A stretch of 35,690 nucleotides of DNA from a virus (IMGVR_UViG_3300045971_000156:1-35690); one strand, 5' to 3'. Shown: positions 8,042 to 26,851, counted from the stretch's first letter. Program-made: numbers and translations. Notes: generated from the letters alone by a model not told the origin.

Positions 8042-8063
8042 CCCTTTACCTTGACTGACAATA
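8042..8063 (+). promoter_or_regulatory. Late motif copy 1: CCCTTTACCttgaCTGACAATA
   Basis: One of five intergenic copies. GACAAT lies at 8057-8062, 33 nt before the ATG at 8095. Confidence 0.6.
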
Positions 8064-8094
8064 GCACATCAAACCACTTTTGAAGGACTGAATC

Positions 8095-8163
8095 ATGGCA
8101 ACAAAGAAACCAGCTAAGAAACCAGTTGACAAATGCCCTCCAAAAGGTAAAGGTAAGTGCTGA
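8095..8163 (+). CDS. Candidate 22-aa Lys-rich micro-ORF (MATKKPAKKPVDKCPPKGKGKC)
   Basis: AAGGA lies 7 nt upstream of the ATG. It is the first ORF after late motif copy 1. Confidence 0.3.
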   Translation: MATKKPAKKPVDKCPPKGKGKC

Positions 8164-8210
8164 TTTAGGGTTTACCCTGATCGGCGAACAATCCAAAAGG
8201 AACTCGCCAA

Positions 8211-8603
8211 ATGGAATTAGCAGAACCGATTGTTAACGGAAAATTAACGGTAAATCCTAGTCATTTCAAACCTGGAAATAAACTCGGTGTTGGTCGCCCA
8301 AAGGGAGCGAGATCAAGACTCCAAGAGAACTTCTTAGTCGTACTGGCTGAAGACTTTAAGGAGAACGGAGAGGATGCAATCGTCAAGATGCGCCAAGAAC
8401 GTCCGTCAGAGTATGTCAAGTGCATTGCAAGCCTAATGCCAAGACAACTTGAACTTGATCGACCTTTGCAGGAAATGACTGATGACGAACTCTACGCTGG
8501 CATCGCCGCCCTTCAACGCCTCGTTGATGCTGAAAACGCTCGCCAAGGAAGCGCAGACACGGCAATCTCAGAACCGACTCTACTCTTACCGTCCGTACAC
8601 TAA
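8211..8603 (+). CDS. terS: Putative terminase small subunit (130 aa)
   Basis: It sits immediately upstream of TerL. The FKPGNKLGVGRPKGARSR block is common in small terminases of this type. Confidence 0.6.
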   Translation: MELAEPIVNGKLTVNPSHFKPGNKLGVGRPKGARSRLQENFLVVLAEDFKENGEDAIVKMRQERPSEYVKCIASLMPRQLELDRPLQEMTDDELYAGIAALQRLVDAENARQGSADTAISEPTLLLPSVH

Positions 8604-9915
8604 ACAGAAAGAGTTTCACGACCAAGCAGTGAGAGAACGCCTGTTGATGGCAGGTAATCAGCTTGGAAAGACCGTAGCGGGTGCGTTTGAGATGGCAATG
8701 CACCTGACAGGCATTTATCCTGATTGGTGGAATGGCATACGGTTTGACAAGCAGGTAGCAGCATGGGCAGGGTCAGTGTCGACACTAGCCACACGCGACA
8801 CAGTTCAACGCCTTGTATGCGGTCGCCCAGGCCAGCTAGGGACGGGGTCAGTACCCAAAGACCTGATCACTGATTCAAAGTCAGCAATGGGAACTCCTGA
8901 CCTTCTGGACCATATCAAGGTTAGACACGTTTCAGGCGAAGAATCAACCTTAGCTTTCAAGTCTTACGAACAGGGCCGGGAAAAGTGGCAGGGTGAAACT
9001 CTGGACATTGTGTGGTTTGACGAAGAGCCAAGCCAAGACATCTACAGCGAAGGGTTGACACGAACCAACGCAACGGGTGGAATGACCTACATGACGTTCA
9101 CCCCGCTATTGGGTATGTCAGACGTTGTTAAACGCTTCCTGTTGGACAAATCACCCGGTACTGGTGTCACGACCATGACCATAGATGACGCTGAACACTA
9201 CACGCCAGAACAACGTGCAGCAATCATTGCCAGCTACCCGGCACATGAGCGTGAGGCTAGAACAAAGGGAATCCCAACGCTAGGCAGTGGTCGAATCTTT
9301 GCTGTACCTGATGAAATGATCTCCATTGATCCGTTTGAGATACCTGAGCATTGGGTGCAGATATGTGGGATTGACTTTGGATGGGATCACCCAAGCGCAG
9401 CGGCTCGGATAGCTTGGAACCGTGATGATGATGTGATTTACGTCACCTCGGCGCATAGACAACGTGAACAGACACCACTTTTGTTCGCAGCTACCGTCAA
9501 ACCTTGGGGTGAATGGATGCCCTGGTCTTGGCCGCATGACGGTTTACAGCACGACAAAGGTTCTGGTGAGCAGTTAGCAGAACAGTACAAGGCGCAGGGT
9601 TTGAATATGCTCGCCGAACGTGCAACCCACGCGCCAAAGGACGGTGAGGACGAGGGAAGCGGTGGAAACGGGGTAGAGGCTGGACTGATGGACTTGCTTG
9701 ACAGGATGCAATCAGGGAGGTTCAAGGTGTTCAAGCACCTGACTGATTGGTTTGAAGAATTCAGGATGTATCACCGAAAAGACGGAAAGGTAGTCAAGAC
9801 AGACGATGACTTGCTTTCAGCGACAAGGTATGCGGTGATGATGAAACGTCATGCCATTACCAAACCAAGACCAGCTAAACCAATCAAGTACGCACAGAGC
9901 AGATTCGTAGCTTAA
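8527..9915 (+). CDS. terL: Terminase large subunit (about 462 aa; alternative start 8482)
   Basis: It has Walker A (AGNQLGKT), Walker B (LDIVWFDEE), the nuclease block ICGIDFGWDHPSAA and a C-terminal DDDLLSATRYAVMM. The conserved YRPYTKQKEFH block forces a start upstream of the TerS stop, at 8527 or 8482. Confidence 0.9.
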   Translation: MLKTLAKEAQTRQSQNRLYSYRPYTKQKEFHDQAVRERLLMAGNQLGKTVAGAFEMAMHLTGIYPDWWNGIRFDKQVAAWAGSVSTLATRDTVQRLVCGRPGQLGTGSVPKDLITDSKSAMGTPDLLDHIKVRHVSGEESTLAFKSYEQGREKWQGETLDIVWFDEEPSQDIYSEGLTRTNATGGMTYMTFTPLLGMSDVVKRFLLDKSPGTGVTTMTIDDAEHYTPEQRAAIIASYPAHEREARTKGIPTLGSGRIFAVPDEMISIDPFEIPEHWVQICGIDFGWDHPSAAARIAWNRDDDVIYVTSAHRQREQTPLLFAATVKPWGEWMPWSWPHDGLQHDKGSGEQLAEQYKAQGLNMLAERATHAPKDGEDEGSGGNGVEAGLMDLLDRMQSGRFKVFKHLTDWFEEFRMYHRKDGKVVKTDDDLLSATRYAVMMKRHAITKPRPAKPIKYAQSRFVA

Positions 9916-9937
9916 CCCTTTACCTCCTTGGACAATC
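9916..9937 (+). promoter_or_regulatory. Late motif copy 2: CCCTTTACCtcctTGGACAATC
   Basis: It begins the base after the terL stop codon. GACAAT lies at 9931-9936, 24 nt before the portal ATG. Confidence 0.5.
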
Positions 9938-9959
9938 CTCATATCTAGAGGATTTGCCT

Positions 9960-12248
9960 ATGAAGATGGACGATGAAGAGCTAATTTCGCTCCTTTCCAA
10001 GAAGGAAGGTGATGCAGCTTCCTATATCCACGGAACTTTGGGCATTGAGCGTGAACTGGCTTTGCGTTCGTACTACCAAATGCCCTATGGCAGCGAACAA
10101 GAGGGTTGGTCCCAGATCGTCGCATCAGATGTTTCCGATTCGGTAGAGTGGATCTTGCCAGCACTGCTGAAAACCTTCACCAGCACCGACAAAGCGGTGT
10201 CCTTTGAGCCTACACGCGAATCAGACGTAAAAGGTGCTGACCAGGCTACTGACACGTGTAACTATGTTTTCTACAAGCAAAACAACGGCTTCCTGATCCT
10301 TTACACCGCTATCAAAGATATGCTAACCGTGCGTAATTGTGCGGTGATGTGGCGTAAGGAAACACTAGAAACAGTCTCAAGCATCCCGTTTAAGGGTGCA
10401 AGTGAGGAAATGCTTGCCATGCTGCTACAGCAGGGTGAGGACGCTGAGATCGTAGAGGCTAACACAGCACCTATCCTTGACCAACAGGGTCAGCCACAGA
10501 TTGATCCTATGACGGGACAGCCTGTTATGGGCTACAACGGTCGGATTAAGCAGACTGAAAAGAAAACAATCTGTAAGGTAGAAGCATTCTCACCTGAAGA
10601 CTTGCTGGTGGACCGTGAGTGGACTTCTCCCTTGTTGGATGATTGCCCCTACGTGTGCAGGTTGATGGCCGTCACCTTGTCAGACTTGAAGCTGATGGGG
10701 TTTAAGGACGTTACACCTGAAGAACTACGCGCATCTGACATGGTTGACGGTGCCAGTGCTGATGCTAACTTCCGCACAACCAAGGCTAATCAGATCGGTA
10801 CAGCTTCATCTAACTTTGGTTGGACTGATGACCACGACGATGATTCAATGGCTACCGGGTTTCTCAGGATTGAGTACGTCCTGGTTGACGCTGACGGTGA
10901 TGGTGTAGCAGAAAGACTGTGTATCTACCGACTAACCGACAGGATTCTGTCAAAGGAAGTCTGTTCGCACGTTCCGATTGCTACGTCTAGCCCAATCATC
11001 AACACACATCGGTGGGACGGTATGTCCATTGCTGATGCGGTGGGTGATTTGCAGAAACTGCACACTGAACTGTTGCGGCAGACACTGGACAACCTCAAGT
11101 TAACCAACAATCCACGAACTAAGGTGCTAACTGATGCTAACTGGTCGCCATTAGCCAACATTGATGACCTTTTGGACTCACGAATTGGCGGGATCATCCG
11201 TCAACGTGATGTTAACGCGATAACTGAACAGATAGTCCCGTTCTCTGCTGGCGCTTCCCTTCCAATGTTGGAGTACGTTCAAGGCATGAGGGAAAACCGT
11301 ACCGGGGTTTCACGTACATCAATGGGATTGAACCCTGATTCACTGAACAACACCGCGACAGGTCGCCAGATCGACCAATCGGCTGCGATGCAACGTATTG
11401 AACTGATTGCACGGATCATCGCTGAAACGCTTGTTAAACCGATATTCAAGGGCATCCTTAAGCTGTTGACTGAAGGCGGGATGGAAAAGTTAGCCTTTCG
11501 TCTGCGTGATGAGTTTGTTGAGTACGACCCTAACGAATGGCGTGATAGTTATGACATGACCATTAACGTCGGTCTAGGTTCGGGTGACACCATGCAGAAA
11601 GCTGGACAACTCATGTCCATCTGGCAGATGCAACAAGCTGCAATGCCTATGGGTTTGGCTAATCCTTTGAATCTTTACCACACCGCGTCGAAAGTGGTGG
11701 AAAACGCAGGCTTCAAGGACGTACAGAATTTCCTGACTGATCCTAGTAAAGCTCCGCCACAGCCGCAACAGCCTCCGATTCAGATTCAGTTGGAGCAGAT
11801 GAAACAGCAGGGCGATGCTCAAAAGTATCAAGCACAGACCCAGGCTGATATTCAGAAATTCCAAGCTGAAAAGCAGATAGAAGTGCAGATTGAACAAGTC
11901 AAAGCACAATCTCAGATCCAAGCAACTCAGGCCACGTTAGAACTGCAACGGGCGAATGATGAGCGTGATGCAGCTCGTGAAATGGCAAAGGCTCAGTACG
12001 ACGCGCAACTTGCCCAACAGCAGTTGGAGTTTGACAAGTGGAAGGCTGAATTTGACGCGCAGACCAAGATCTACATTGAACAACTGAAGATTCAAGCATC
12101 AGTTCCTCAGACCGCACCTGAACAAGCTAACGAAATGACTCAGGTCCTGTCTGGTCTACAGGCAGTCATTGCACAGATGTCAGCACCAAAGATGATTGTC
12201 CGTGATGCCTCTGGTAAGGCTATCGGTGTCCAACACGTTCAAGGATAA
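9960..12248 (+). CDS. Portal protein (762 aa) with a long Q-rich C-terminal coiled-coil
   Basis: Position after terL and size both fit. The N-terminal block LALRSYYQMPYGSEQEGWSQIVASDVSDSVEWILPALLKTF is typical of podovirus-type portals. GAGGA lies 7 nt before the ATG at 9960; the track start at 9954 is a TTG. Confidence 0.85.
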   Translation: MKMDDEELISLLSKKEGDAASYIHGTLGIERELALRSYYQMPYGSEQEGWSQIVASDVSDSVEWILPALLKTFTSTDKAVSFEPTRESDVKGADQATDTCNYVFYKQNNGFLILYTAIKDMLTVRNCAVMWRKETLETVSSIPFKGASEEMLAMLLQQGEDAEIVEANTAPILDQQGQPQIDPMTGQPVMGYNGRIKQTEKKTICKVEAFSPEDLLVDREWTSPLLDDCPYVCRLMAVTLSDLKLMGFKDVTPEELRASDMVDGASADANFRTTKANQIGTASSNFGWTDDHDDDSMATGFLRIEYVLVDADGDGVAERLCIYRLTDRILSKEVCSHVPIATSSPIINTHRWDGMSIADAVGDLQKLHTELLRQTLDNLKLTNNPRTKVLTDANWSPLANIDDLLDSRIGGIIRQRDVNAITEQIVPFSAGASLPMLEYVQGMRENRTGVSRTSMGLNPDSLNNTATGRQIDQSAAMQRIELIARIIAETLVKPIFKGILKLLTEGGMEKLAFRLRDEFVEYDPNEWRDSYDMTINVGLGSGDTMQKAGQLMSIWQMQQAAMPMGLANPLNLYHTASKVVENAGFKDVQNFLTDPSKAPPQPQQPPIQIQLEQMKQQGDAQKYQAQTQADIQKFQAEKQIEVQIEQVKAQSQIQATQATLELQRANDERDAAREMAKAQYDAQLAQQQLEFDKWKAEFDAQTKIYIEQLKIQASVPQTAPEQANEMTQVLSGLQAVIAQMSAPKMIVRDASGKAIGVQHVQG

Positions 12249-12251
12249 ACC

Positions 12252-13364
12252 ATGTCAAGCACACTAAGAAACGGTGAAACCCGTGACCTAAATCTCACAG
12301 CATCAGACTACATCGCCCTAGTCGCTATTTCAGGAACCTACACGGCAACAGTTGTCCGTGGCAATAGCTCTGGAACTGTTCTAGGGACTAACGCAACTGG
12401 CGGAACTTACGGTCCTTACACAGGTGGTGCTGTTATCAGGGTGGCGACAAGCGCATCAAGTGAGGTTGACTTTGACATCGGCGCTAGTCCGGTAATTGTG
12501 TCTGATACGTTCGTAATGTCCTCAATCAATCCTGTCACCGGGGGGATTAGTATTGGTGTGCTTCCGTACGCGCAACTAGATGCCTATTATGCTGGCACAA
12601 AGATGACTTTCACGCCCGGTGCGGGTGGTGGGGCATCCGTTGCAAACAGCGGGGTCATCACTACGCCCGGCGGCACTGACATCGTTATCGGTGTAGCAGG
12701 AAAGGTATTCTACGAAAATGCCACAGCCAATATCACTGGCGCTGGTCATTCCGTAGGCTCCCTTGGTTGGTCAGTTATCAACGCAACTGGCCGCACCACA
12801 CAACTTGCAATTGGCTCAGAAGGCAAGATAGACGTAATCGCAGGCACCGTGACCACGGGTGTGCTTAACGAATCACAGCTTGCATCAAATGCCGGAACCA
12901 TTAGCACCCTGATCGGCCAACGCTCTGCTGTTGTCGCCAACACCGGGACGATAGGTTATTACGTCGGTCATTACTTCCCTGACCACTCTGCAATTTCAGG
13001 TATCACGACCAAGCGGTGCTATCAGTCCGATGATCCAAATGCGCCAATGGTAGTCAAGTCTTTGGTGGTGTCTCAGGGTGTGTATGCAGTGGCACCAACG
13101 GCAGGGCAGACGATCACTATCCCTGACAACTACGGCGACTATCTTGTGATGCCAGCAGGAACACTGGCAACCCTGACGATCAACTTCCCTGCTGCACCGA
13201 TTGATGGGCAAGAGATCACGATCAAGACAAGCCAAGCACTTACTGCGTTGACCCTCAGCGGGAACGGCAAAACCATGTTTGACGGTGTGACAACGATGGC
13301 GGTTAACGCCTTCGTCACTTACAAGTATTACGCAGGCTCAACCCTGTGGTATCGCAAGGGTTAA
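12252..13364 (+). CDS. Hypothetical virion protein (370 aa), Gly/Thr/Ser-rich and fibre/beta-helix-like
   Basis: Track ORF with an AAGGA RBS. Its composition and short beta-strand periodicity resemble tail-fibre or spike proteins. I recognise no family. Confidence 0.6.
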   Translation: MSSTLRNGETRDLNLTASDYIALVAISGTYTATVVRGNSSGTVLGTNATGGTYGPYTGGAVIRVATSASSEVDFDIGASPVIVSDTFVMSSINPVTGGISIGVLPYAQLDAYYAGTKMTFTPGAGGGASVANSGVITTPGGTDIVIGVAGKVFYENATANITGAGHSVGSLGWSVINATGRTTQLAIGSEGKIDVIAGTVTTGVLNESQLASNAGTISTLIGQRSAVVANTGTIGYYVGHYFPDHSAISGITTKRCYQSDDPNAPMVVKSLVVSQGVYAVAPTAGQTITIPDNYGDYLVMPAGTLATLTINFPAAPIDGQEITIKTSQALTALTLSGNGKTMFDGVTTMAVNAFVTYKYYAGSTLWYRKG

Positions 13365-13411
13365 AACCTAATCCCCTCTGCACAAAGAACACAAGTTAAG
13401 GAGTAATTTAT

Positions 13412-13825
13412 ATGCCAACAGCAAGCTACACCAAGATCACAGCAGGTATCGAGCCATTGCTTGAAGCCATCAACGTCGGATCTGACACTTGGAAGATTGC
13501 CCTATCCAATGCAGATGCTACGGCTAAAACCACGTTTGTCGCAGGTACGGATGACCTGGCTACAGGTGCAGGCTACACCGCAGGTGGTAACGCTTGCACA
13601 GTGACCACAGCAGCACAGGTGGCGGGTACTTATACCTTCACACTTGGTAACCCGGCAGTGTGGACCGCATCGGCTTCTATGGGTCCATTCAGATACGCCA
13701 TCCTTGTGGACACGACCACATCAACGCCTGTTGCTCAGTGGGACTATGGGGTAGGTGGCGTAACCTTAGCAAGCGGTGACACGTTCACCTTCACATTCTC
13801 TGGTAACGTCTTTACAGCGGTTTAA
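13412..13825 (+). CDS. Hypothetical virion protein (137 aa)
   Basis: A strong AAGGAG RBS precedes it. The blocks GAGYTAGGN...VWTASASMGPFRYAILVD recur in conserved phage structural proteins of unknown role (from memory). Confidence 0.65.
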   Translation: MPTASYTKITAGIEPLLEAINVGSDTWKIALSNADATAKTTFVAGTDDLATGAGYTAGGNACTVTTAAQVAGTYTFTLGNPAVWTASASMGPFRYAILVDTTTSTPVAQWDYGVGGVTLASGDTFTFTFSGNVFTAV

Positions 13826-13827
13826 TC

Positions 13828-14571
13828 ATGGCTGATAACACAGCACAAAACGGCACGGCCACTATCGCGGCTGATGACGTCACTACCCTGAATGGCTCGG
13901 CCTCGTCTGGTGTCCTGGTTCAACGGATGAAGCCTGTATGGGGTGCAGATAACTCTGCCAGGGACACATCAGGCGCTTTCCCACTCCCTGTAACGCTAGA
14001 CGGTGATGAGCTTGTTACCTATGATGGTCGTACAAGTAGCTTCCGTATGCCCGGCAGGGCGGGAACCGCCGGGCAAAAGATTTTCAGCATCTACAACACA
14101 GCAGGATCAGGTGTTCTTGTTAGGCTAAACGAGATACATGTGCACATGACTGCCACGGTGATCAAGGCTGTGACAGTATTGCCCCCTATGGTGCGTATTT
14201 ATCGAGTAACGGCTGCACCCACAAGCGGTACTGCCGGGACAAAACAGCCAAAGGATTCAACCAAAACGTCTAGTGCCAGTGTTGCCATTCTGTTTGACGC
14301 CTCCGCGGACGGAACATCGTCTGCAACAGCATTGACCGCTACCCCTGTAGCCGGGGCAATTACCGCTCAGTTTGCCCCTCGGATGATCACTGCCGCTGGC
14401 TTTGACATGATCTTCAAGATGGAGTTTCTTAGCGGAAGCAGTGAGTACATCATCTTGCGAGAGGGTGAGGGCGCAGTCTGTGTTTTAGATTACGTGTTGG
14501 CAACGCAGAATCCTGTCACTGACATGTGGATGGTTACATCGGATTGGACTGAATACACAGCGGTAGCCTGA
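13828..14571 (+). CDS. Hypothetical virion protein (247 aa)
   Basis: Track ORF, tightly packed with its neighbours. Confidence 0.6.
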   Translation: MADNTAQNGTATIAADDVTTLNGSASSGVLVQRMKPVWGADNSARDTSGAFPLPVTLDGDELVTYDGRTSSFRMPGRAGTAGQKIFSIYNTAGSGVLVRLNEIHVHMTATVIKAVTVLPPMVRIYRVTAAPTSGTAGTKQPKDSTKTSSASVAILFDASADGTSSATALTATPVAGAITAQFAPRMITAAGFDMIFKMEFLSGSSEYIILREGEGAVCVLDYVLATQNPVTDMWMVTSDWTEYTAVA

Positions 14572-14572
14572 T

Positions 14573-15583
14573 ATGTCTTTGCTACTGCTACTTAGAGCGA
14601 GTGGTGGGGCAGCAAACTACACTCTGACAGGTAACGCTGGGTCATATTCCCTCACTGGTGGGTCAGCGGTACTCACCAAAACAAGCGGGTCTGTTGCCTA
14701 CACACTGACAGCAAACGCAGGTTCTTACTCGTTAACCGGGGGAACTGCGTCACTAAAGGTCGGCAGAAAGATCACCGCCAATGCGGGTTCTTACGCTCTA
14801 ACTGGCGGGACTGCTTCACTCAAGGTAGGCAGGAAACTCACAGCCAATGCAGGCACATACACCCTCACAGGTGGCTCTGCAACGCTCACAAAGTCAACAG
14901 GAAGCCTTGCATACACCCTAACCTCTAACCCAGGCTCATACAGCCTTACAGGTGGCACGGCAAGCCTAAAACGTGGATATTTCCTAACGGCAAATGCTGG
15001 AAGCTACTCGCTAAGTGATGGTGCGGCTAGTTTGTCAGTTGGTCGAAAGATCACAGGCTTGGCAGGGACGTACTCGATAACGGGTGGTTCTGCTGTACTG
15101 ACAAAGACCGGGACAGGTCCGACAAGCTACTCACTTACTGCTCTACCAGGAACTTACCTGATCACTGGATCAAGCGCAACGCTAACTTGGTCGGGTGAAC
15201 ATGCTCAGGGATATTCCGCTGAAATCGACCTCACACCACGTAAATACTACGTCAAACGCCGTGGTAAGTTGTTCCTGTTCAACACTGCACAACAGGCAGA
15301 TGATTGGATGGAAGCTGATGATCAGGCTGAAGAAGCTATCCAGAAGGCTCAAATCTCGTCTAGAAGGTCAAAGATCAGGGTAAGAAACAAGGTCATCACT
15401 GTTAAACCGATTGAAACGGTTGACATTCCCCAACTTCAATCCTTGGTTAACAGACTTGACCTGAAGGTAAATTTACCCCAACTTGTCAAACAGCAAGAGT
15501 TTGAACGGGTCATGCAGGTTATGGCACTTGCACAGCAGATGGTTGAAGAAGACGATCTAGAGTTACTTTTATTGTTGGGGTGA
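14573..15583 (+). CDS. Repeat-containing hypothetical protein (336 aa)
   Basis: It carries eight tandem units of 22-27 aa (LTANAGSYSLTGGTASLKVGRK-like). The N-terminus is MSLLLLL and the C-terminus is ELLLLLG. Confidence 0.65.
   Translation: MSLLLLLRASGGAANYTLTGNAGSYSLTGGSAVLTKTSGSVAYTLTANAGSYSLTGGTASLKVGRKITANAGSYALTGGTASLKVGRKLTANAGTYTLTGGSATLTKSTGSLAYTLTSNPGSYSLTGGTASLKRGYFLTANAGSYSLSDGAASLSVGRKITGLAGTYSITGGSAVLTKTGTGPTSYSLTALPGTYLITGSSATLTWSGEHAQGYSAEIDLTPRKYYVKRRGKLFLFNTAQQADDWMEADDQAEEAIQKAQISSRRSKIRVRNKVITVKPIETVDIPQLQSLVNRLDLKVNLPQLVKQQEFERVMQVMALAQQMVEEDDLELLLLLG
14618..15190 (+). repeat. Eight in-frame tandem coding repeats of about 66-80 nt
   Basis: The periodicity is seen in the protein at aa 16-206 (YTLTGNAGSYSLTGGSAVLTK / YTLTANAGSYSLTGGTASLKVGRK / ITANAGSYALTGGTASLKVGRK ...). 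Confidence 0.85.
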
Positions 15584-15586
15584 GAT

Positions 15587-16291: not shown

Positions 16292-16392
16292 TCCGGGGAC
16301 CGTGCTTGTCCTGTTTCAGACAAGATCCGGAAAAGTGTAACAGCAGAACCTTTGCAAGCATTCTACAGCCAAAAAATCAGGCTTGTCAATTC

Positions 16393-16414
16393 CCCTTTAC
16401 CACTGCTGACAATA
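16393..16414 (+). promoter_or_regulatory. Late motif copy 3: CCCTTTACCactgCTGACAATA
   Basis: GACAAT lies at 16408-16413. The A of the ATG at 16420 is the 7th nt after the hexamer. Confidence 0.55.
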
Positions 16415-16419
16415 CCCAC

Positions 16420-16719
16420 ATGGACGATAAATCACTGTCATTGCGTGGTCGTGAAGCACAGTCTTTGCTGGATAACCCACTACTGACTGAAGCACTAGCA
16501 ACCATGCGTAAAGCTACGGTAGATCAGTGGAAAGACATGGATCTCCGTGATAAGGAGGGTGCGTTACTTCTGCTTCAAATGGCAAAAGTAACTGATCGAT
16601 TTGAAGGCATTTTGAGGGGCATTGTGGACACCGGGAAACTGGCACAACGCCGCATTGATTTGGACGCAATCCGCGATGAACCCGCTGCAAGGCGATTCAT
16701 GCGTAAGGTTTACGGCTAG
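16420..16719 (+). CDS. Hypothetical protein (99 aa), possibly translated from a leaderless mRNA
   Basis: This is an internal ATG of track ORF 16288..16719, whose own start is a TTG inside the previous stop codon. The upstream 44 codons look non-coding and contain motif copy 3. There is no Shine-Dalgarno. Confidence 0.6.
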   Translation: MDDKSLSLRGREAQSLLDNPLLTEALATMRKATVDQWKDMDLRDKEGALLLLQMAKVTDRFEGILRGIVDTGKLAQRRIDLDAIRDEPAARRFMRKVYG

Positions 16720-16733: not shown

Positions 16734-16800
16734 AGCGAATGCAGCGATGCACCGCAATCCCTTCTAGTACCAAGAGGGGGGATTTTGATGGAAACTGAAA

Positions 16801-18771: not shown

Positions 18772-18790
18772 TACGGTTTTGCGTTGTCTT

Positions 18791-18818
18791 AAGGCTCACT
18801 TCGGTGGGCCTTTTTTTA
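18791..18818 (+). terminator. Rho-independent terminator after the capsid gene
   Basis: AAGGCTCAC-TTCG-GTGGGCCTT forms a 9-bp stem with one G-U pair and a TTCG tetraloop, followed by a T-run (tttttttat). Confidence 0.85.
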
Positions 18819-18841
18819 TGCTCCGCATTAACCAAAGTTAG

Positions 18842-18863
18842 CCCTTTACCGTTGCTGACAATA
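18842..18863 (+). promoter_or_regulatory. Late motif copy 4: CCCTTTACCgttgCTGACAATA
   Basis: It lies 24 nt after the terminator. GACAAT is at 18857-18862, 27 nt before the ATG at 18889, which has a TAGGAG RBS. Confidence 0.65.
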
Positions 18864-18888
18864 CTCCTATTAGCTAGGAGTTTTACGC

Positions 18889-19206
18889 ATGGAAATCGAA
18901 AGCAATCTAACGATTGACGATGGTGTAAATGAGTTTGGAACTAAGCGTGAAATCATCCTTGAGGGTGATCAGATCGTTGAAAAGCTGACGTATGACGCTG
19001 AACCATTGCTCAGATACGCTGAACAAGCACGGATAGCCACCCGTGGTGATAGTTGGGGTAATGGTCACTTTGTAGGGGTCATTCCAATTCCTGAATTGGT
19101 AAATATACAAAAAACATTCCAAGGTGCAGAAGAAAGAAAACACGCAATTCTTTCCTATATCAAAAACAGGCCAAAGTATGCAACCTTTGAGAAGTTCCTC
19201 AAATGA
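18889..19206 (+). CDS. Hypothetical virion-module protein (105 aa)
   Basis: Track ORF with a good RBS. Confidence 0.65.
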   Translation: MEIESNLTIDDGVNEFGTKREIILEGDQIVEKLTYDAEPLLRYAEQARIATRGDSWGNGHFVGVIPIPELVNIQKTFQGAEERKHAILSYIKNRPKYATFEKFLK

Positions 19207-19796
19207 GCACCTACGCCACACTACAAACAGACGTTGCAGACTACCTGCACCGCACTGACTTGACGGCAAAGATGCCGACGTTCATCGCCCAGGCTGAAGC
19301 GTCTATCTTTCGTGAGATTTCAATCAAGGCCACAGAAACGTCTGTAATCGGCGTTACGGTAGGTGGATATGCAATCCTTCCTGTTAATTTTGGATCGGTC
19401 ACAAGGCTTTCTATCACGGCTAATGGCACAGCTAGGGTTCTGGATTACATTGCTTTAGCCGACACAGCAACGGCAAGCATATCAACGCCGGGTTTCTATT
19501 CATTTGAAAACGGTAATCTGAGGATTTGGGGATCAACAGATGGTCAGGCTTACACGCTTTACTACATCCCAACGATTACCCCACTGTCAAACATCAACAC
19601 GACAAATTGGGTGCTTACCAATGCGTCTGATCTTTATCTGTACGCTACCGCACTAGAAGCAGCTAAGTACATCCGTGACGATGCACAGATTCAAGGTCTA
19701 ACCGGGATGGTGGGTGCAATCGTAGATTCTGTTCGCAGATTGGCTGAACGTGTGGGTGTGCCGTCTAGTGGGTCTTTGCAGATCAAGGCACGGTAA
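19203..19796 (+). CDS. Putative head-tail adaptor (197 aa)
   Basis: The N-terminus LQTDVADYLHRTDLTAKMPTFIAQAEASIFRE is typical of adaptor/connector proteins. Size and position (before a large nozzle-like gene) resemble T7 gp11-type adaptors. The start is ATGA-coupled. Confidence 0.45.
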   Translation: MSTYATLQTDVADYLHRTDLTAKMPTFIAQAEASIFREISIKATETSVIGVTVGGYAILPVNFGSVTRLSITANGTARVLDYIALADTATASISTPGFYSFENGNLRIWGSTDGQAYTLYYIPTITPLSNINTTNWVLTNASDLYLYATALEAAKYIRDDAQIQGLTGMVGAIVDSVRRLAERVGVPSSGSLQIKAR

Positions 19797-21352
19797 TGCC
19801 TTTTACTCACATCAAACAGGTAGGTCAGTACGGTGTAAACCGTGACCTATCGTCGTCTGAACTTTCACCTAATTCCTGGACAGACTGTCAAAACATCCGA
19901 TTTCTTGACGGGTCGGCGTATCAGTTCTATGGTCATGGTGAGGTTTTCCCCGGTACGGTGGTAGAGCCTTACCACGTTTTGCCTGTTTCTGTCTTAGGTG
20001 TAAGAAACTGGCTTTACGCTGGTGCGAACAAGATTTATCAAGTCAATGCTACTGGTGGGGTTGTTACCCACACCAACATCACCCGACAGACTGCATTGGT
20101 TGATGTGAACTACGCAGCAACTAAGAACAGTTGGACTTCTACTGTTTTGGGCGGGATTCCCGTTCTAAATAACGGAGTTGACGTTCCGCAAATGTGGTCG
20201 TTGTCAGGTAAATGCACCGCACTAACCAATTTCCCGGCATCAACTACCTGTGCAGTGATCAGGGCTTACAAAAACAGCCTGATTGCTTTGAACGTGACCA
20301 AGACAGGGACTAACTACCCATTCATGGTGAAGTGGTCACACCCGGCAGACCCAGGAACTGTACCTGTATCTTGGGACATTGCAGATGCGACTAAGGACGC
20401 TGGTGAAGTTGATTTGGCAGAAGGGTACGACTCCATTGTGGATGGTCTAGCCCTTCGTGATTCATTCGTTATCTACAAACAGCAATCGGTTTGGAGAATG
20501 GATTACACAGGTGGGCCATATATCTACAAATTCTCCAAGGTACTCGGTACGTCAGGGGCCATGAATCGGAACTGCATCACCGAACTTGACGGACAACACT
20601 TCGTATTGACGGCTGATGATGTGGTGATCCATGACGGTAATCAGGCGGTTTCTGTTTTAGATAAACAGACAAGACGTTTCCTGTTTGCCAACATTGACTC
20701 ACAACTGGTTAATCTTTGCTTCGTTTTCAAAAACCCGTACATGAATGAGGTTTTTGTTTGTTATCCAAGCGCCGGGGCTACATCCTGCAATCAGGCGATG
20801 GTCTGGAATTGGGTTGATAAAACGATCAGTTTCAGGGAAATTCCAAGTCTCAATCATGCACAAGTTGGTGCGTTGGACAACGGACTTTCTCAGACGTTTG
20901 ACGGTGATGAAAGTCCTTTCGACAGCGACATTACCGCATTCAACGCAGGGGACTTCACACCTGACATTGCCCGTGTGGTGATGGCAAGCGGGGGCACCAA
21001 ACTCTACCAACTGGACAGCAGCACGACATTTAACGGGACGTTGCCTACAGCCTACCTGGAGCGTAAGGGACTGCATTTTGATGCACCTGAATCAATCAAG
21101 TTGATTAAGAGTATCAGACCAAGGATTGCAGGCACGAACGGAGCGACGGTCAACATTCAAGTCGGTTGGTCAAACGAGCCTTATGAGGCACCTACCTACG
21201 GGTCTGTGATCCCGTTCACTATTGGGACTTCTGTTAGCTGCGACACCATGACTTCAGGTAGGTATATGGCGATTAAATTCTCTAGCGGAACTGCTTACCA
21301 GTGGCGGTTAGATTCGTACTCGATTGACGCACAGATTTCGGGGGCATGGTGA
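19796..21352 (+). CDS. Putative tail hub / nozzle protein (518 aa)
   Basis: It follows the adaptor-like gene. The N-terminal block GVNRDLSSSELSPNSWTDCQNIRFLDG resembles tail tubular B-like proteins of podoviruses (from memory). Confidence 0.4.
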   Translation: MPFTHIKQVGQYGVNRDLSSSELSPNSWTDCQNIRFLDGSAYQFYGHGEVFPGTVVEPYHVLPVSVLGVRNWLYAGANKIYQVNATGGVVTHTNITRQTALVDVNYAATKNSWTSTVLGGIPVLNNGVDVPQMWSLSGKCTALTNFPASTTCAVIRAYKNSLIALNVTKTGTNYPFMVKWSHPADPGTVPVSWDIADATKDAGEVDLAEGYDSIVDGLALRDSFVIYKQQSVWRMDYTGGPYIYKFSKVLGTSGAMNRNCITELDGQHFVLTADDVVIHDGNQAVSVLDKQTRRFLFANIDSQLVNLCFVFKNPYMNEVFVCYPSAGATSCNQAMVWNWVDKTISFREIPSLNHAQVGALDNGLSQTFDGDESPFDSDITAFNAGDFTPDIARVVMASGGTKLYQLDSSTTFNGTLPTAYLERKGLHFDAPESIKLIKSIRPRIAGTNGATVNIQVGWSNEPYEAPTYGSVIPFTIGTSVSCDTMTSGRYMAIKFSSGTAYQWRLDSYSIDAQISGAW

Positions 21353-21615
21353 GATCAACACAGGGTCAGATCAACAGATATGCGGCTAGTCCCGTTCCTA
21401 GCGGTGATTTGTCCACGTTTCTAAAGATTGAACTAGCAAGGATTGAATCAGCGATGAATGCTATCGCTGATGGTCAGTTGGACGTGACTACAGTAGCACC
21501 TACAAAGCCTCGTGACGGGATGATTCGCATGGCAGATGGGACAAGTTGGTCACCGGGTGGATTGGGTGCAGGGGTGTACTGTTATTACGCAGGAAATTGG
21601 GTCAAGTTAGGCTAA
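21346..21615 (+). CDS. Conserved small virion protein (89 aa)
   Basis: The PTKPRDGMIRMADGTSWSPGGLGAGVYCYYAGNWVKL block recurs in many podophage tail modules. Its function is unknown. Confidence 0.6.
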   Translation: MVRSTQGQINRYAASPVPSGDLSTFLKIELARIESAMNAIADGQLDVTTVAPTKPRDGMIRMADGTSWSPGGLGAGVYCYYAGNWVKLG

Positions 21616-21626
21616 AGGAATAAATC

Positions 21627-22562
21627 ATGGCAACAGCATTAAATCTAGGTTTTGGGGCATCAAATCCCTACGTTGCTAATCAAGCAACAGCGTTGCAAAA
21701 CGCAAGCAATCAAAACCTTCAACAGAACGTCATGCCTGGTATCGGTCAGGGCGCACAGATGGCGGGTGGGTACGGTGGATCACGTCAAGGGATTGCCCAA
21801 GGTGTCGCTGCGGGTAACGCTCAGACAGGCGTGGATTCAGCTACTGCGAATCTTTACTCAAATGCCTACGCACAGGATCAAAATGCACAGTTGCAGCGTG
21901 ATCAGATGGCGGCACAGCAATCAATAGCATCAATGCAGAATCAAACCGCGCAACGTGGTCAGGATAAGAGCTATGACCTTGGAATGGCAAACAACGATGT
22001 AAACCGACTCGGGGTAAACAATCAGTTCACTCTTGGACAGGGAAACCTTGCGCTAGGAAATCGTCAGGCCGATCAATCTTACGGACTTGGTCTTGGTAAT
22101 CTTGGTCTTGGCTATCAAAATAGCGATCAGCAATATAACCTTGGACTTGGAAACCTTGCTGTAAATAACAAACAAGCCGATAACACCTACTCATTGGGTC
22201 AGGGTCAGTTGCAGAACCAATTTCTTGCCAATAAAAATAACTATGACCTTGGATTACGTCAGAATGATCTAGGCTTTGCAGGTTTGGATGCAAGCATTTC
22301 CAACAACAATTTCAACAATCAACTAAGTTCCGCTAACTTTGGTCTGAATGCTTTCAAAACACAGCAAGATGCAAACAACCAAGGCATTCAAGCTGGTACA
22401 CAGATTCAGAATACTCCTTACGACTATTGGAATGGCTTTAATACATCTGCAAATAACGTAGGTAACGGACTTCCAAGCACGACACAGAGCCAAACCGCAT
22501 CGGGTAATCCGTGGCTAGGTGCTTTGGGTGGATGGCAACTTGGCTCAAAAATTGGTGGATAA
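21627..22562 (+). CDS. Q/N/G-rich low-complexity protein (311 aa), putative internal/ejection protein
   Basis: It contains repeated Y-x-LGLGNL units and lies in a run of large genes before the tail fibres. Confidence 0.55.
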   Translation: MATALNLGFGASNPYVANQATALQNASNQNLQQNVMPGIGQGAQMAGGYGGSRQGIAQGVAAGNAQTGVDSATANLYSNAYAQDQNAQLQRDQMAAQQSIASMQNQTAQRGQDKSYDLGMANNDVNRLGVNNQFTLGQGNLALGNRQADQSYGLGLGNLGLGYQNSDQQYNLGLGNLAVNNKQADNTYSLGQGQLQNQFLANKNNYDLGLRQNDLGFAGLDASISNNNFNNQLSSANFGLNAFKTQQDANNQGIQAGTQIQNTPYDYWNGFNTSANNVGNGLPSTTQSQTASGNPWLGALGGWQLGSKIGG

Positions 22563-22571
22563 GGACTAATC

Positions 22572-23867
22572 ATGGCAGACACTAACCCGTTCACATTAGA
22601 TTATCAACAGTTCTTACAGGCAATGCAGCCTTATGCTGCGGCCAATGGTGGATCGTACAACTGGAACAGTCCTGAAGGACAAAACGGAAGTGTCGGTCTT
22701 ACGTTAGCCAACGGTAAGACATGGGCACCAAGTGGCGCGGCTTCAGGTGTTGAGTTTATTCCTAAAGGGACTAAAAAATATATTGGTCCTAACCCTGGAT
22801 CAAACAAATTTGAACGGTCGATTGGAGACCCCTATGCTGATCCAGCTAACTATGCTGCACCAACGTCTGAGGATACTTGGAAAATATCGGGTGATATGTC
22901 TGCATTGTTAGGTCAAAACGATACCAATGCTCATAAAACGATCGAATATCGGCAACAAGACGGTAAGTTAATTCCTACCAAAACTGAGGATTGGCAGAAT
23001 AAAAACACTGGTTTTGGTGGATTTCTAAAAGATGCGTTATCCACAGACGCATTCAAGGCATTTGGGTTACTCACAGGCGCAAGCATGTTAGGTGGTCTTG
23101 GTGGCGCTGGAAGCGGTTTAGACGCAGCAGGAGGTGCGCTAGGCGGTGCAGATGCTGCTGCTAATGCAGGACTTGCGTATGGTGGCGCGGCAGACGCAGG
23201 GGGGGGTCTGCTATCTGGTGCAGCAGGACTAGACGCAGCGGGGGGTGCTATCGGTGGAGCGCAAGCTGCTGCTGACGCTGGTCTAGCTTACGCAAACGGT
23301 TTAACTGCTGCTGACATAGCGGCTATGGGTGGTTCTGTGGGTGGTGCTGCTGGATTTGGTAATGTTGTTTCATCTGGTTCAGGTCTTTTATCTGGTTTAG
23401 GTTCTATCGGAACTGTATTAAAAGATAACGCAGGTTTGATAGGTGCTGGTCTAGGTGCAATTGCTAGTGGACAAGACCAAACCCAATCCACAACAGCTTC
23501 TAAAGAGCCGTGGGCAGCGGCAGCACCTTGGATGAAGCAAAACCTAGCCACAGGTCAGAAGTTGCAGGATTACTACCAAAACAATCCATTCAACGATCAG
23601 CAAAAATCCTCTTACCAAAACCTGTTCACGGGCATTGACAACTTCAACCAGAACACCATGCCAGCACTGACAGACTTTGCTAACCGTGGCATGAATACAG
23701 CCTATCAGCGTCCTACAGGTGGTGCGGTGGGTAGTGGTGGTGGGTACGGTGGTGCTGTGCAGCCTGGTGGCCTTATGGGTACAGGTGGGCGTGGTTTAAC
23801 TGCGCCACAGATGCAGTCGCTTGGTCAAATTGATTGGACAAAGGTTAACCCCTTTGCAAAGGTGTAA
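22572..23867 (+). CDS. Gly/Ala-rich protein (431 aa), putative internal/ejection protein
   Basis: The central GLDAAGGALGGADAAANAGLAYGG block is duplicated as GLDAAGGAIGGAQAAADAGLAYAN. Confidence 0.55.
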   Translation: MADTNPFTLDYQQFLQAMQPYAAANGGSYNWNSPEGQNGSVGLTLANGKTWAPSGAASGVEFIPKGTKKYIGPNPGSNKFERSIGDPYADPANYAAPTSEDTWKISGDMSALLGQNDTNAHKTIEYRQQDGKLIPTKTEDWQNKNTGFGGFLKDALSTDAFKAFGLLTGASMLGGLGGAGSGLDAAGGALGGADAAANAGLAYGGAADAGGGLLSGAAGLDAAGGAIGGAQAAADAGLAYANGLTAADIAAMGGSVGGAAGFGNVVSSGSGLLSGLGSIGTVLKDNAGLIGAGLGAIASGQDQTQSTTASKEPWAAAAPWMKQNLATGQKLQDYYQNNPFNDQQKSSYQNLFTGIDNFNQNTMPALTDFANRGMNTAYQRPTGGAVGSGGGYGGAVQPGGLMGTGGRGLTAPQMQSLGQIDWTKVNPFAKV

Positions 23868-23869
23868 AC

Positions 23870-25120
23870 ATGGGATTACTAGATGCCTTGAACACTTACG
23901 AAGGTCAGCAAGGGTTAGGCTTGCTTGCTGCGGCTGGCCCACGATTCGACAACGCCAGTTTCTTTCAGCGATTGCAAGAAGGAATGGGTTCTGCTGACAA
24001 GTGGAAACGTGAACAGGCGAAGGCTGAACTTGAGAAACTTCAAGTCGAGGAATACAAGCGCAAGGTCGCTCAAGAACAGTTGGATCAGCAACAAGCACTT
24101 GTCAATAAGGAAGCAATCAGAAATCAGTTCATACCCATGTCTGGTGGACAAGCAATGGCTAACGGCCAAGGCCCAACGCTTGCTAATACTCAGAATCTAG
24201 GTCAGATGCCTAAGTTTGATCCTGCTACGTTCTTCCAGCAAAACCCAAATGCTGATGTGTCGGCGTTAAAGGGTGCGGTTGACATTAACCAGATGATGAA
24301 CCCGGCGCGTGAGTTGATGAGTGTTCCTGAAAACAATGTGGTGATTGATAAGCGTACGGGTCAATCAGTGTTCACTGCACCAACTAAACCAAAGGAAATT
24401 GATCCTAACAAACCGTTCTACATGGTTGACGGGAAGATAACTCCCAATCCTGATTTTCAGGCATTTGATCTAAGTAAATCTAAAGCAAGTGCAACACACG
24501 TCAATACTAATGCAATTAACAACGTAAACGCATTTGAACCATTCAAGAACAAAGTTCAGGGGGAAATGGGGACAAACTTAGTTAAGAGTTTTGATACCTT
24601 ACAAAACATTCCACAAACTATTCAAGCATTAGACGCAGCAAAAGCTACTATTCCAAATGCCAAAAACTTTCTTGGAAGTGGTGGCGAAACAAAACTAGCA
24701 ATTGCTAAATTCTTTAATAGCAATCTTGGTACAAGTATTGACCCTTCAGGCGTTGCAGACGTAGAAACGCTTAAATCTCAGTTGTTCTATAACATCATGG
24801 ATAACTTGAAAAAGATGGATGCAAGTCCATCACAGCAACAACAGCAAAAAATGTCTGAGGCGTTTGGTAATATTAATACTGATCCCAAAGCGTTGCCTCA
24901 AATTATTGATTTCTATCGTAGTCAAGTTACGTCAAAAGCAAAAGAACATAACAGGCGTGTAGATCAGACATTGTCAGGTCCATCAGGAATTCAGTTTCCT
25001 TATGACATCCACATTGATTTACCTAAAGAAAATGCGTCAAAGACTGTTGTTGGTACTGGTACATACTACGGTAAAAAAGTGAATAAATACTCTGATGGGA
25101 GAGTTTACTATGCCAATTGA
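23870..25120 (+). CDS. Hypothetical large virion protein (416 aa), N-terminus MGLLD
   Basis: Track ORF with a coiled-coil-like segment (KAELEKLQVEEYKRKVAQEQLDQQQ). Confidence 0.6.
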   Translation: MGLLDALNTYEGQQGLGLLAAAGPRFDNASFFQRLQEGMGSADKWKREQAKAELEKLQVEEYKRKVAQEQLDQQQALVNKEAIRNQFIPMSGGQAMANGQGPTLANTQNLGQMPKFDPATFFQQNPNADVSALKGAVDINQMMNPARELMSVPENNVVIDKRTGQSVFTAPTKPKEIDPNKPFYMVDGKITPNPDFQAFDLSKSKASATHVNTNAINNVNAFEPFKNKVQGEMGTNLVKSFDTLQNIPQTIQALDAAKATIPNAKNFLGSGGETKLAIAKFFNSNLGTSIDPSGVADVETLKSQLFYNIMDNLKKMDASPSQQQQQKMSEAFGNINTDPKALPQIIDFYRSQVTSKAKEHNRRVDQTLSGPSGIQFPYDIHIDLPKENASKTVVGTGTYYGKKVNKYSDGRVYYAN

Positions 25121-26645
25121 TCCAAGAATGGTTAAGTGGGATAACGAACCTACTGATGCGCCAGAGATAGACCCTCGTATGGTCAAATGGGACGATGGTC
25201 AATCAAATGACAATCAATCATGGTTTGACAAGCAAAGCAAAGGATTAGCTACAGCACCTATCAATGCTTATCTTGGCCTAAAACAGATGTTTGGTGGACT
25301 TGATCCTATCGAACAGAATATCCTTGCACAAAACAAAGAGGCTGAAAAGAAAGCACCAATTGCTTCCATTGGGTCTAACCTGCTAACCGCTGTTCCTTCA
25401 ATTCTCGCGGGTGGATTGTCTATCCCTGCGGCTGCTGGATTTGGTGCAATCAATGGCATGGTTCAACCTGTTGAAGGTGATCAAACCTTATCCAACATTG
25501 CATCAGGAAAACTAACTAACTCGGCTCTAGGTGGTGTGTTTGGTGCGGCTGGTCAGTACGGATCAAATAAAATCGCTGGCGCACTTGCTAACCGTTTTGC
25601 TACTAAATCTGCTGAATCTGCTGCTGATGCCTCTAGAAATAGCGTAAAAGATGCTGTTTTAGCTGAGTCTCGTGGTGCAGGTTACACAGTCCCACAATCT
25701 CAAGTTCAACCAACATTCTTTGGTAATCGTCTTGAAAGCATCGGCGGGAAAGCTGCTGTAAAGCAAGAAGCTACGCTACGCAACCAAGAGGTTAGCAACG
25801 CACTAGCAAGAAAAGCAATCGGACTCCCTGAAGACGCACCGTTGTCTTTGGGAAATATCGCCAAGGTTAGAGAACAAAGCTATGCGCCTTATGTTGAGGT
25901 GTCAAAACTTCCCGTAAGGCCAGCACAGACAGGAAGCACGTTAACCAACACGCCAGCTATACCTGGTTTCAATCCAGCGGCAGAACTGGAAGCATTGAAG
26001 GTTGCTAGGGCTGACGCACAGGCATGGTACAAGGCTTACAACGCTACGCCTCATCCTGACACACTGACAAAGGCAAAGGAAACCCAAGCACTTGCTGATT
26101 CAATTGAACAATCTTTGCAAGACTATGCCAAGTCTCAAGGTCGGAAAGACTTGATACCTGAACTGGTAAAAGCAAGGAAAGAAATCGCCAAAACCTATAC
26201 GGTTGAACGTGCTTTGAACAGCGCAACGGGTGACATCAATGCGCCTGTTCTTGGTCGATTAGCAGGAAAGCAAAAACCACTATCTGATGGTTTAGACACT
26301 ATCGGAAAGTTCAATCAAGCGTTTCCACAGATTTCACGCCCTGGTGTAGCGACTCAATCCCCTGGTGTTAGCTTTGCAGAACCTGTATCAATGGGGTTAG
26401 CTGGCCTTGCTGGTCAAGCTGCAACAGGAAGCCCAATCGGTCTAATGGCGGCAGGTTTGCCATTGTTGCGTGGTCCTGCTAGATCTATTGCGTTGTCAAA
26501 AATGGCGCAAGGACCAAGGAATTACGACATTGGCGCACTTACCCGATTAACAGGAAAGATTCCCAAGGATGCGTTTGACGTCCTTGGGCTTGGAACCGCT
26601 GGTTACGCAACCCCGTTTATCGGTGGATTGTTAGCGGCACAGTGA
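25110..26645 (+). CDS. Hypothetical large virion protein (511 aa)
   Basis: GGGAGA lies 7 nt before the ATG at 25110. The N-terminus carries the duplicated IDPRMVKWD motif, and Gly/Ala hydrophobic stretches lie near the C-terminus. Confidence 0.6.
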   Translation: MPIDPRMVKWDNEPTDAPEIDPRMVKWDDGQSNDNQSWFDKQSKGLATAPINAYLGLKQMFGGLDPIEQNILAQNKEAEKKAPIASIGSNLLTAVPSILAGGLSIPAAAGFGAINGMVQPVEGDQTLSNIASGKLTNSALGGVFGAAGQYGSNKIAGALANRFATKSAESAADASRNSVKDAVLAESRGAGYTVPQSQVQPTFFGNRLESIGGKAAVKQEATLRNQEVSNALARKAIGLPEDAPLSLGNIAKVREQSYAPYVEVSKLPVRPAQTGSTLTNTPAIPGFNPAAELEALKVARADAQAWYKAYNATPHPDTLTKAKETQALADSIEQSLQDYAKSQGRKDLIPELVKARKEIAKTYTVERALNSATGDINAPVLGRLAGKQKPLSDGLDTIGKFNQAFPQISRPGVATQSPGVSFAEPVSMGLAGLAGQAATGSPIGLMAAGLPLLRGPARSIALSKMAQGPRNYDIGALTRLTGKIPKDAFDVLGLGTAGYATPFIGGLLAAQ

Positions 26646-26801
26646 GTCTTTAGGACCACCACGATGTTTCAAAAGTTGATTCTTGAGCCAACTTTCAGGC
26701 ATGAATCTGTGAACTGTCCAACGGATACCAAGTGCAAACACACCAAAAAGCAAGAATGCAAACAGTGGTTTAAGAATCAAAGCAATTAGCCAAGTGTCCA
26801 T
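26631..26801 (-). CDS. Antisense small membrane protein (56 aa)
   Basis: Manual translation gives MDTWLIALILKPLFAFLLFGVFALGIRWTVHRFMPESWLKNQLLKHRGGPKDSLCR. AGGGGA lies 5 nt upstream of the ATG. It converges with the 511-aa gene and overlaps its end by 15 nt. Confidence 0.5.
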   Translation of the reverse strand: MDTWLIALILKPLFAFLLFGVFALGIRWTVHRFMPESWLKNQLLKHRGGPKDSLCR

Positions 26802-26829
26802 GATTTCCCCTTAGACAACCATCCTACAC

Positions 26830-26851
26830 CCCTTTACCCACAAAGACAATA
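26830..26851 (+). promoter_or_regulatory. Late motif copy 5: CCCTTTACCcacaAAGACAATA
   Basis: GACAAT lies at 26845-26850, 20 nt before the tail-fibre ATG at 26870. Confidence 0.55.

Follow-up and report, generated by a model that had tools for sequence, protein, structure and literature searches.

We wanted to determine what kind of element stands in front of the late gene blocks of the virus contig IMGVR_UViG_3300045971_000156, and which factor reads it. This complete contig of 35,690 bp, the whole of which is referred to here as the window, has a lambdoid gene layout, and a 22-bp motif made of two blocks recurs in it five times. An original prediction, made from the sequence of the window alone, had taken the repeats for late promoters of unusual architecture, had placed the factor among three small genes at 7300-8040, and had proposed a scan of related phages on both strands. 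Having followed up this prediction computationally, we consider it likely that the five repeats are late promoters that have a sigma70-type -10 element and no -35 element and that are activated by a winged-helix protein, encoded at 7300-7590, at a 12-bp element upstream of the -10. Taking the parts of this reading separately, and relying throughout on comparison of sequences, we have high confidence that the five repeats are promoters, good confidence that the winged-helix protein reads the upstream element, and moderate confidence that this protein activates initiation and is not an antiterminator.

Exact matches to CCCTTTACC-N6-GACAAT in the whole window number five (starts 8042, 9916, 16393, 18842, and 26830). 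As predicted, each of them is intergenic and lies on the + strand, and the pattern is non-random, with 0 matches in 100 dinucleotide-preserving shuffles. The further claim that there are no copies in coding sequence or on the - strand also held: when up to 3 mismatches were allowed, a single extra match appeared (10173, within the portal gene), which is at the level of the chance expectation of 0.76. Copy 1 begins 2 nt past the stop codon of the 7735-8040 gene and copy 2 immediately past the stop codon of the large terminase gene (TerL, 9915); copy 3 lies within the intergenic gap 16292-16419, copy 4 is downstream of the major capsid gene, and copy 5 lies within the intergenic gap 26646-26869. 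The start codon follows the 22-bp motif at a distance of 31, 22, 5, 25, and 18 nt in copies 1-5, respectively, so the predicted distance of 7-33 nt was close, the exact range being 5-31 nt. The strong terminator said to precede copy 4 is present as a stem (18791-18812) followed by a T-run, and the gap from it to copy 4 is about 23 nt. The two other TTTACC strings listed in the prediction (at about 3523 and 15474) fall short of the full number: the + strand of the window holds 15 and the - strand 14, and a near-copy is among those on the + strand (33889-33907). The elements are as follows, with the assignments as promoters being putative.

8042-8063, + strand: late promoter 1, with upstream element CCCTTTACC(TTG), -10 GACAAT at 8057-8062, and predicted start at about 8068-8069; it would serve a 22-amino acid open reading frame (ORF) at 8095 and the small and large terminase genes.
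9916-9937, + strand: late promoter 2, with -10 at 9931-9936 and predicted +1 at A9943; it would serve the portal gene and the next five genes.
16393-16414, + strand: late promoter 3, with -10 at 16408-16413 and predicted +1 at the A of ATG 16420; it would serve the genes for a 99-amino acid protein, the scaffold, and the major capsid protein.
18791-18819, + strand: intrinsic terminator after the major capsid gene, with a 9-bp stem containing 5 G-C pairs, then a T-run.
18842-18863, + strand: late promoter 4, with -10 at 18857-18862 and predicted +1 at A18869; a restart promoter past the capsid-gene terminator, it would serve the adaptor and tail genes.
26830-26851, + strand: late promoter 5, with -10 at 26845-26850 and predicted +1 at about 26856-26857; it would serve the tail-fiber and lysis block.
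33889-33907, + strand: TTTACC-N7-GACAAT, a near-copy in which the CCC flank is missing, running antisense to the early-left genes.

Relatives of the window were collected by a portal search of IMG/VR, which returned 80 loci whose portal proteins are 54-73% identical in amino acid sequence to that of the window; many of these loci recur in an exact-motif scan of IMG/VR. In the window and the 80 related loci together, the proposed scan of both strands revealed a motif that is conserved and strand-specific: the gene strand carries 130 copies of TTTACC-N6-nAnnnT versus 6 on the opposite strand, and TTTACC is followed by nAnnnT at N6 in 44% of the + strand strings versus 3.4% of those on the - strand. 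The 135 unique sites give the logo C-S-C-TTTACC-A-M-T-nnn-G-A-c-A-a-T, the upstream element of which (C-S-C-TTTACC-A-M-T) is 12 bp long, asymmetric, and adjoins the -10. Genomes of the family have 4-6 such sites each. The arrangement of the sites is also shared. Homologous first promoters either directly follow the winged-helix gene or overlap its end; in most relatives that have the winged-helix protein, the portal gene is preceded by the motif or a variant; and past the capsid gene of relatives a terminator is again paired with a restart promoter. In one lineage (L001/L072) the spacing has shifted in a coordinated manner, and all late promoters read TTTACC-N7-TAnnAT. In the literature, we found no account linking TTTACC to late promoters.

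The second block behaves like a -10 element. In the relatives it varies (GACAAT, GATAAT, GAAAAT, CACAAT, TAAAAT, TACGAT, and others), with all variants conforming to nAnnnT, and the family logo shows that C at -1 and A at +1 are favored 6-7 nt past the hexamer. A start codon follows within 200 nt at 146 unique sites, and when the spacing between the hexamer and the start of the first long ORF is measured there, 25 of the 146 fall in a sharp peak at 6-7 nt; nearly all of the sites in the peak belong to the conserved 99-amino acid gene (16420-16719 in the window), and the six intervening bases vary. Because an in-frame stop codon adjoins the motif in several relatives, the ATG is the first possible start there and matches the predicted +1. 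Further, because the ATG of L001/L072 stays 6 nt from the hexamer despite the N7 spacing between the blocks, it is the hexamer, not the upstream block, that fixes the start. The ATG thus coincides with the predicted +1 in about 25 promoters, including copy 3 of the window, which points to leaderless mRNA, and the transcript of promoter 3 is predicted to begin with the A of ATG 16420.

With respect to a -35 element, the information content of the -35 to -30 region of the family logo is at most 0.13 bit, and the best match to TTGACA averages 3.10 in the -35 region versus 3.13 in a control region. No conserved extended -10 TG (-15/-14) was found in the logo either, positions 10-11 being T/G and T/C with low information. 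Compared with canonical sigma70 promoters, the family therefore has the -10 (A at position 2, T at position 6, and about 7 nt to the start) and has no -35 (TTGACA, 16-18 bp upstream). The corresponding coordinates would be -12 to -7 for GACAAT, -24 to -19 for TTTACC, and about -27 to -16 for the whole upstream element. The original prediction had offered two readings of the motif, the first of which, with GACAAT as a -10, an upstream element at about -20 to -28, and no -35, agrees with the nAnnnT variation, the C/A start, the clustering of ATG codons, and the TTGACA matches at control level.

The genes among which the factor had been sought overlap one another and occupy the following positions.

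7300-7590, + strand: gene for the 96-amino acid winged-helix protein, the proposed late activator on the basis of synteny, co-occurrence, covariation, and an AlphaFold model.
7577-7738, + strand: gene for a 53-amino acid basic protein (GRPxKP ... RDKFYELGGxRWxNRLLEGLT), with a 14-nt overlap with the winged-helix gene.
7735-8040: gene for a 101-amino acid protein.

The prediction is supported with respect to the first of these genes; the second encodes a possible accessory factor, and the product of the third has a homologue in none of the relatives. Nearly all relatives with the motif encode a homologue of the winged-helix protein, 93-100 amino acids long, whose gene follows NinG and either ends just ahead of promoter 1 or overlaps it. 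The family shares the pattern MLKKNQPVKF.RP.STMR ... QV.SAL.NL..IG ... GRS.Y..PG ... CL.GV.SIF.V, and the protein of the window is 22-33% identical to the other members. Protein and motif co-occur. A hidden Markov model (HMM) search detected the protein in 32 loci, the window included, and did not detect it in motif-less relatives having enough upstream sequence. A repeated xxxTACC 7-mer in promoter geometry was one of the two top-ranked 7-mers in 16 of 21 loci with the protein and in 0 of 12 without it (Fisher p = 2e-5); this measure replaced two that were noisy, namely a loose regular expression (p = 0.007) and a count of at least three repeated 7-mers (p = 0.125). A portal-based genome scan yielded 7 loci, in all of which the winged-helix protein and the motif are absent. 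Prophage relatives in Polaromonas and Ramlibacter have neither, and these prophages suggest a host among the Betaproteobacteria.

The AlphaFold model of the window protein has a confidence (predicted local distance difference test) of 74, with values of 82-92 over residues 11-70, and comprises helix H1 (16-25), helix H2 (31-38), a recognition helix (42-55), and a wing (58-71). Solved-structure and fold searches returned generic ArsR/SmtB/MarR-type winged helices only. Searches of Pfam, NCBIfam, and PHROGs gave no match for any of the three 7300-8040 proteins, and a tblastn search of 50,697 GenBank phage records with the winged-helix protein gave none. Homologues obtained with the window protein alone were few (2 proteins by a word-indexed search and 7 by phmmer); a search with the family alignment in a collection of 5.8 billion proteins yielded 93 clusters, whose source names are "hypothetical protein" and, in two cases, an automatic "TFIIE alpha" label. 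We conclude that the winged-helix family is previously undescribed and is not in Pfam, NCBIfam, PHROGs, or the GenBank phages.

Protein and motif not only co-occur but also covary. Residue X of the helix sequence "...SAL-X-NL..." (helix residue 9) changes together with base 1-2 of the TTTACC-type hexamer in the following manner.

X = Y, W, F, H, L, or N: hexamer TTTACC, in most loci.
X = A or S: hexamer ATTAC(C/T), in L028, L170, L177/L178, and L182.
X = E: hexamer CTTACC, in L172/L173 and L179/L180.
X = R, with Asp four residues earlier: hexamer TCTACC, in L016 and L032/L033.

There are 0 exceptions among about 45 distinct proteins, and the pairings of A and E were predicted from the protein ahead of reading the contigs; both held. 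In the AlphaFold model, the covarying residue of the window protein is Trp-50, which is located in the recognition helix. The pairings are chemically sensible, as Glu goes with C, Arg with a G:C pair, and a hydrophobic side chain with the methyl group of T. We infer from them that the protein physically binds the upstream element.

The proposed mechanism is as follows. Among the conserved genes of the early-right operon, that of the winged-helix protein comes last, at the position of lambda Q, and its product would bind the 12-bp element, probably as a monomer through the recognition helix. The bound protein would then contact host RNA polymerase, recruiting or stabilizing it, and five late units would be switched on: terminase; portal and the genes that follow; scaffold and capsid; adaptor and tail; and fiber and lysis. 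Unit 3 would begin at the A of its ATG as a leaderless mRNA, and the capsid-gene terminator would end units 1-3, with promoter 4 restarting transcription beyond it. We infer that the effect is activation: because the element has a strict orientation and spacing to the -10, stereospecific activation fits better than occlusion.

Several points weigh against this mechanism. A protein bound at -27 to -16 would more often be a repressor. The C-terminal tail of the window protein is divergent and modeled with low confidence. The variant specificity classes come from 1-2 related sub-clades ("NLAYIGA") and represent about 3-4 independent changes. Taking the hexamer for the -10 of a housekeeping sigma is an assumption. 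Finally, about half of the relatives (L003, L008, L010, L013, L015, L028, L040, L041, L170, L172, L177-L179, and L181) have, 60-100 nt past promoter 1, an intrinsic terminator resembling those of Q-type systems, with a conserved CTCC(C) ahead of it at about +10 to +16 of the leader; this terminator may end the early operon or attenuate terminase expression, and the window has no such terminator.

A different form of the proposal, in which the winged-helix protein is no conventional activator but a stand-in for sigma region 4 docked on host polymerase (e.g. on the beta flap or a remodeled sigma), seems to us rather unlikely. If true, the site of upstream recognition would be shifted toward the -10 by one helical turn relative to normal promoters, and the promoters would form a new bipartite -24/-10 class with a simple code that is re-programmable by one residue and one base.

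An antiterminator resembling Q or AlpA, which would bind in the promoter, transfer to polymerase, and allow terminator readthrough without activating initiation, is the main rival and an unlikely explanation that nonetheless would account for the leader terminator found ahead of terS in about half of the relatives. It would also explain why the gene is located past NinG and just ahead of the terminase genes, as in the case of lambda Q, and why the site lies in the promoter spacer, the lambda Q binding element also being located between -35 and -10. However, Q-type promoters are constitutive, whereas the promoters described here, having neither a -35 nor an extended -10 TG, would be weak unaided; no -10-like pause element is conserved or enriched at +1 to +25; and there are 4-6 sites per genome (five in the window), not one. 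Further, a restart promoter directly follows the conserved terminator past the capsid gene, an arrangement that implies termination of upstream transcripts at this point. The window itself has no terminator past promoter 1, and none of its candidate proteins matched a Q, AlpA, or other antiterminator family.

It is very unlikely that the repeats are repressor sites of the "stoperator" kind, at which the winged-helix protein or the immunity repressor would keep the late genes off. Cluster A mycobacteriophages have oriented intergenic repeats bound by a repressor, the site overlaps the promoter core, and the closest structural matches of the winged-helix protein are repressors of the ArsR/SmtB/MarR type. 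Against this, occlusion has no need of the strict orientation and -10 spacing (N6, or N7 in one lineage), promoters without a -35 should need help and not repression, and the site is asymmetric, unlike the palindromes bound by ArsR/MarR dimers. The winged-helix gene, moreover, is located at the end of the early lytic operon, outside the immunity region. As for the immunity repressor, it has 110 amino acids and only a helix-turn-helix (HTH) domain in the window versus 226-239 amino acids with an S24 peptidase domain in relatives, and because such CI-like repressors are not the same from one motif-bearing genome to another, the immunity repressor is not the motif reader.

We regard as similarly improbable the idea that something else reads the motif, such as a host alternative sigma or an unrecognized phage sigma-like protein, with the winged-helix gene linked to it by synteny only. 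The two-block -24/-12 geometry does resemble that of sigma54, and phages of the phiEco32 type, which have the SU10-type module in common with the window, use sigma factors of their own (PMC8948821). However, the GG (-24) and GC (-12) of sigma54 promoters are absent, and the second block is like a sigma70 -10. In agreement with the original prediction, neither a sigma factor nor an RNA polymerase was found among the window proteins scanned, a scan covering all but a few ORFs shorter than about 110 amino acids; the largest ORFs of the window are the portal and virion proteins. The covariation between residue and base, further, ties specificity to the winged-helix protein itself.

The second reading of the original prediction, which takes TTTACC for a weak -35 and, as the -10, a poor TATnnn located 16-17 nt further on, is extremely improbable. 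In its favor, TTTACC matches TTGACA at 4 of 6 positions and TAT is found at that distance in 3 of 5 copies. Against it, the family logo shows nothing -10-like conserved downstream, and a start site is a better explanation for the conserved Y-A-T; the start would fall past the ATG in copy 3 and about 25 homologues, and the invariant GACAAT-type block would be left without explanation. Three other candidates were rejected: a T7-like promoter, given the -10-like variation of the hexamer and the failure to find a phage polymerase; a translation-start-associated sequence, as the element is upstream of the inferred start and its distance to the start codon ranges from 6 to >100 nt; and a packaging site or mobile repeat, as sharing is limited to 22 bp and always in promoter geometry.

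The pair of activator and promoter proposed here is new; its general kind is known, and it is not a new category. To our knowledge, P1 Lpa is the one well-known precedent for an activator site adjoining a -10 without a -35, and it is the closest functional analogue. P1 late promoters involve the host protein SspA, and their element is an inverted repeat, unlike the asymmetric element of the window; nor was a Lpa homologue found in the window, whose winged-helix protein has no match in PHROGs. P1 has several late promoters per genome, with a normal -10, no functional -35, and a Lpa-bound element centered near -22 (PMC3152322), and the window is alike in having several promoters with a -10, no -35, and an element centered at about -22. 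The middle promoters of T4 (MotA/AsiA, "sigma appropriation") are comparable in that the -10 is kept and the -35 is replaced by a phage-specific box. The MotA box is centered at -30, about 12 bp from the -10, whereas the element of the window has another sequence, is centered at about -22, and adjoins the -10; no MotA or AsiA homologues were detected among the candidate proteins of the window. With lambdoid Q and Pseudomonas AlpA, the system shares a gene between NinG and terminase, a site in the promoter spacer, and, in some relatives, a leader terminator, and it differs from them in its multiple sites, the absence of a -35 and of a conserved pause element, the pair of terminator and restart promoter, and the lack of homology.

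Like the window, phiEco32 and phage 7-11 combine an SU10-type structural module with conserved phage-specific motifs ahead of late blocks, and promoters of their sigma factors (phiEco32 gp36 and 7-11 gp47) have the sequences tAATGTAtA or GTAAtg-16-aCTA (PMC8948821). The window differs in its motif and in that the search for a sigma gene found none. Small phage activators of late operons that act via host polymerase also include Mu C/Mor, P2 Ogr, phi29 p4, and RinA-type proteins (PMC3152322). Their sites are located upstream of the -35 or span it (-30 to -104) and are mostly repeats, unlike those of the proposed activator, whose site is single, asymmetric, and located at -27 to -16, and whose family is unrelated.

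If correct, the proposal would account for how late genes are switched on in a large group of uncultured temperate phages that probably infect Betaproteobacteria. The code relating residue to base (an aromatic residue for T, Ala/Ser for A, Glu for C, and Arg for TCTACC) amounts to a built-in design for specificity swaps and could give small orthogonal pairs of promoter and activator. In related metagenomic phages, the motif can also guide the annotation of leaderless genes and of the limits of late operons.

Of the two genes adjacent to that of the winged-helix protein, the one for the 53-amino acid basic protein has family members, with an AT-hook-like GRPKKP segment, in a subset of the relatives (L003, L055, L060-L062, and L064). 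In L055 (3130-3594), the winged-helix and basic proteins are fused into a single protein of 154 amino acids, with the basic part at the C terminus. This fusion hints that the basic protein may be an accessory factor.

The window is a temperate podovirus-like phage with SU10-type structural genes, and its genes are arranged as follows.

1613-1945, - strand, and 2017-2223: immunity region, with the CI-like repressor and a P22-Cro-like protein, respectively.
Early-right operon: ParB-like protein, PAPS-reductase/DUF3440, O-like replication protein, NinG, and HNH.
7300-7590, 7577-7738, and 7735-8040: the three small overlapping genes described above.
Late genes: terminase, portal, scaffold, major capsid, adaptor/tail, fiber, and holin.
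16420-16719, + strand: conserved 99-amino acid gene, with homologues in 51 loci, whose ATG coincides with the predicted start of promoter 3.
Past the late genes: integrase and leftward early genes.

The Pfam domains SU10_portal, SU10_MCP, and SU10_adaptor were found in relatives. A DNA-level search of GenBank phages revealed no close relative of the window, and its portal protein is 31-33% identical to those of LUZ24/N4-like and freshwater phages in GenBank.

We also made some minor observations. The near-copy at 33889-33907 has the N7 spacing that is functional in the L001/L072 lineage but does not have the C at position 0, a base that 129 of 135 family sites keep. This near-copy may act as a weak sixth late promoter for an antisense RNA or may have arisen by chance (about 1 in 100 by a rough count). 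A near-consensus sigma70-type promoter on the - strand (TTGACA-18-TAGAAT, 11 of 12 matches, 16389 to 16360) adjoins late promoter 3 and points in the opposite direction. Conserved, structured-looking non-coding stretches of 300-550 nt are found in the leader past promoter 1 in L051, L053, L055, and L060-L064 and in the TerL-portal gap in L164, L169, and L170. Some of these stretches are flanked by two promoter copies, and none comparable is seen in the window; they may encode non-coding RNAs. A scan of the window with Rfam matched 0 families.

Between late promoter 1 and terS, the window has a lysine-rich tiny ORF of 22 amino acids (MATKKPAKKPVDKCPPKGKGKC, 8095-8163), and similar peptides are present in L010, L013, L028, and L065. 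Next to it, in the 5' untranslated region of the small terminase gene, is a conserved RNA hairpin (GGCGAACAATCCAAAAGGAACTCGCC, 8184-8210, with the ATG at 8211), for which homologous sites were found in about 45 related loci. Its two stems both show compensatory changes: in the outer stem, one pair is CG in 26 sites, UA in 3, and AU in 1 and another is GC in 18 and UA in 5, and an inner pair is CG in 18 versus UA in 13, with 0 broken. In many cases a GNRA tetraloop forms the loop, and a Shine-Dalgarno-like GGA is part of the inner stem, on its 3' strand. Because relatives without the winged-helix protein have the hairpin too, it is independent of the promoter system, and it may be a translational operator for terS.

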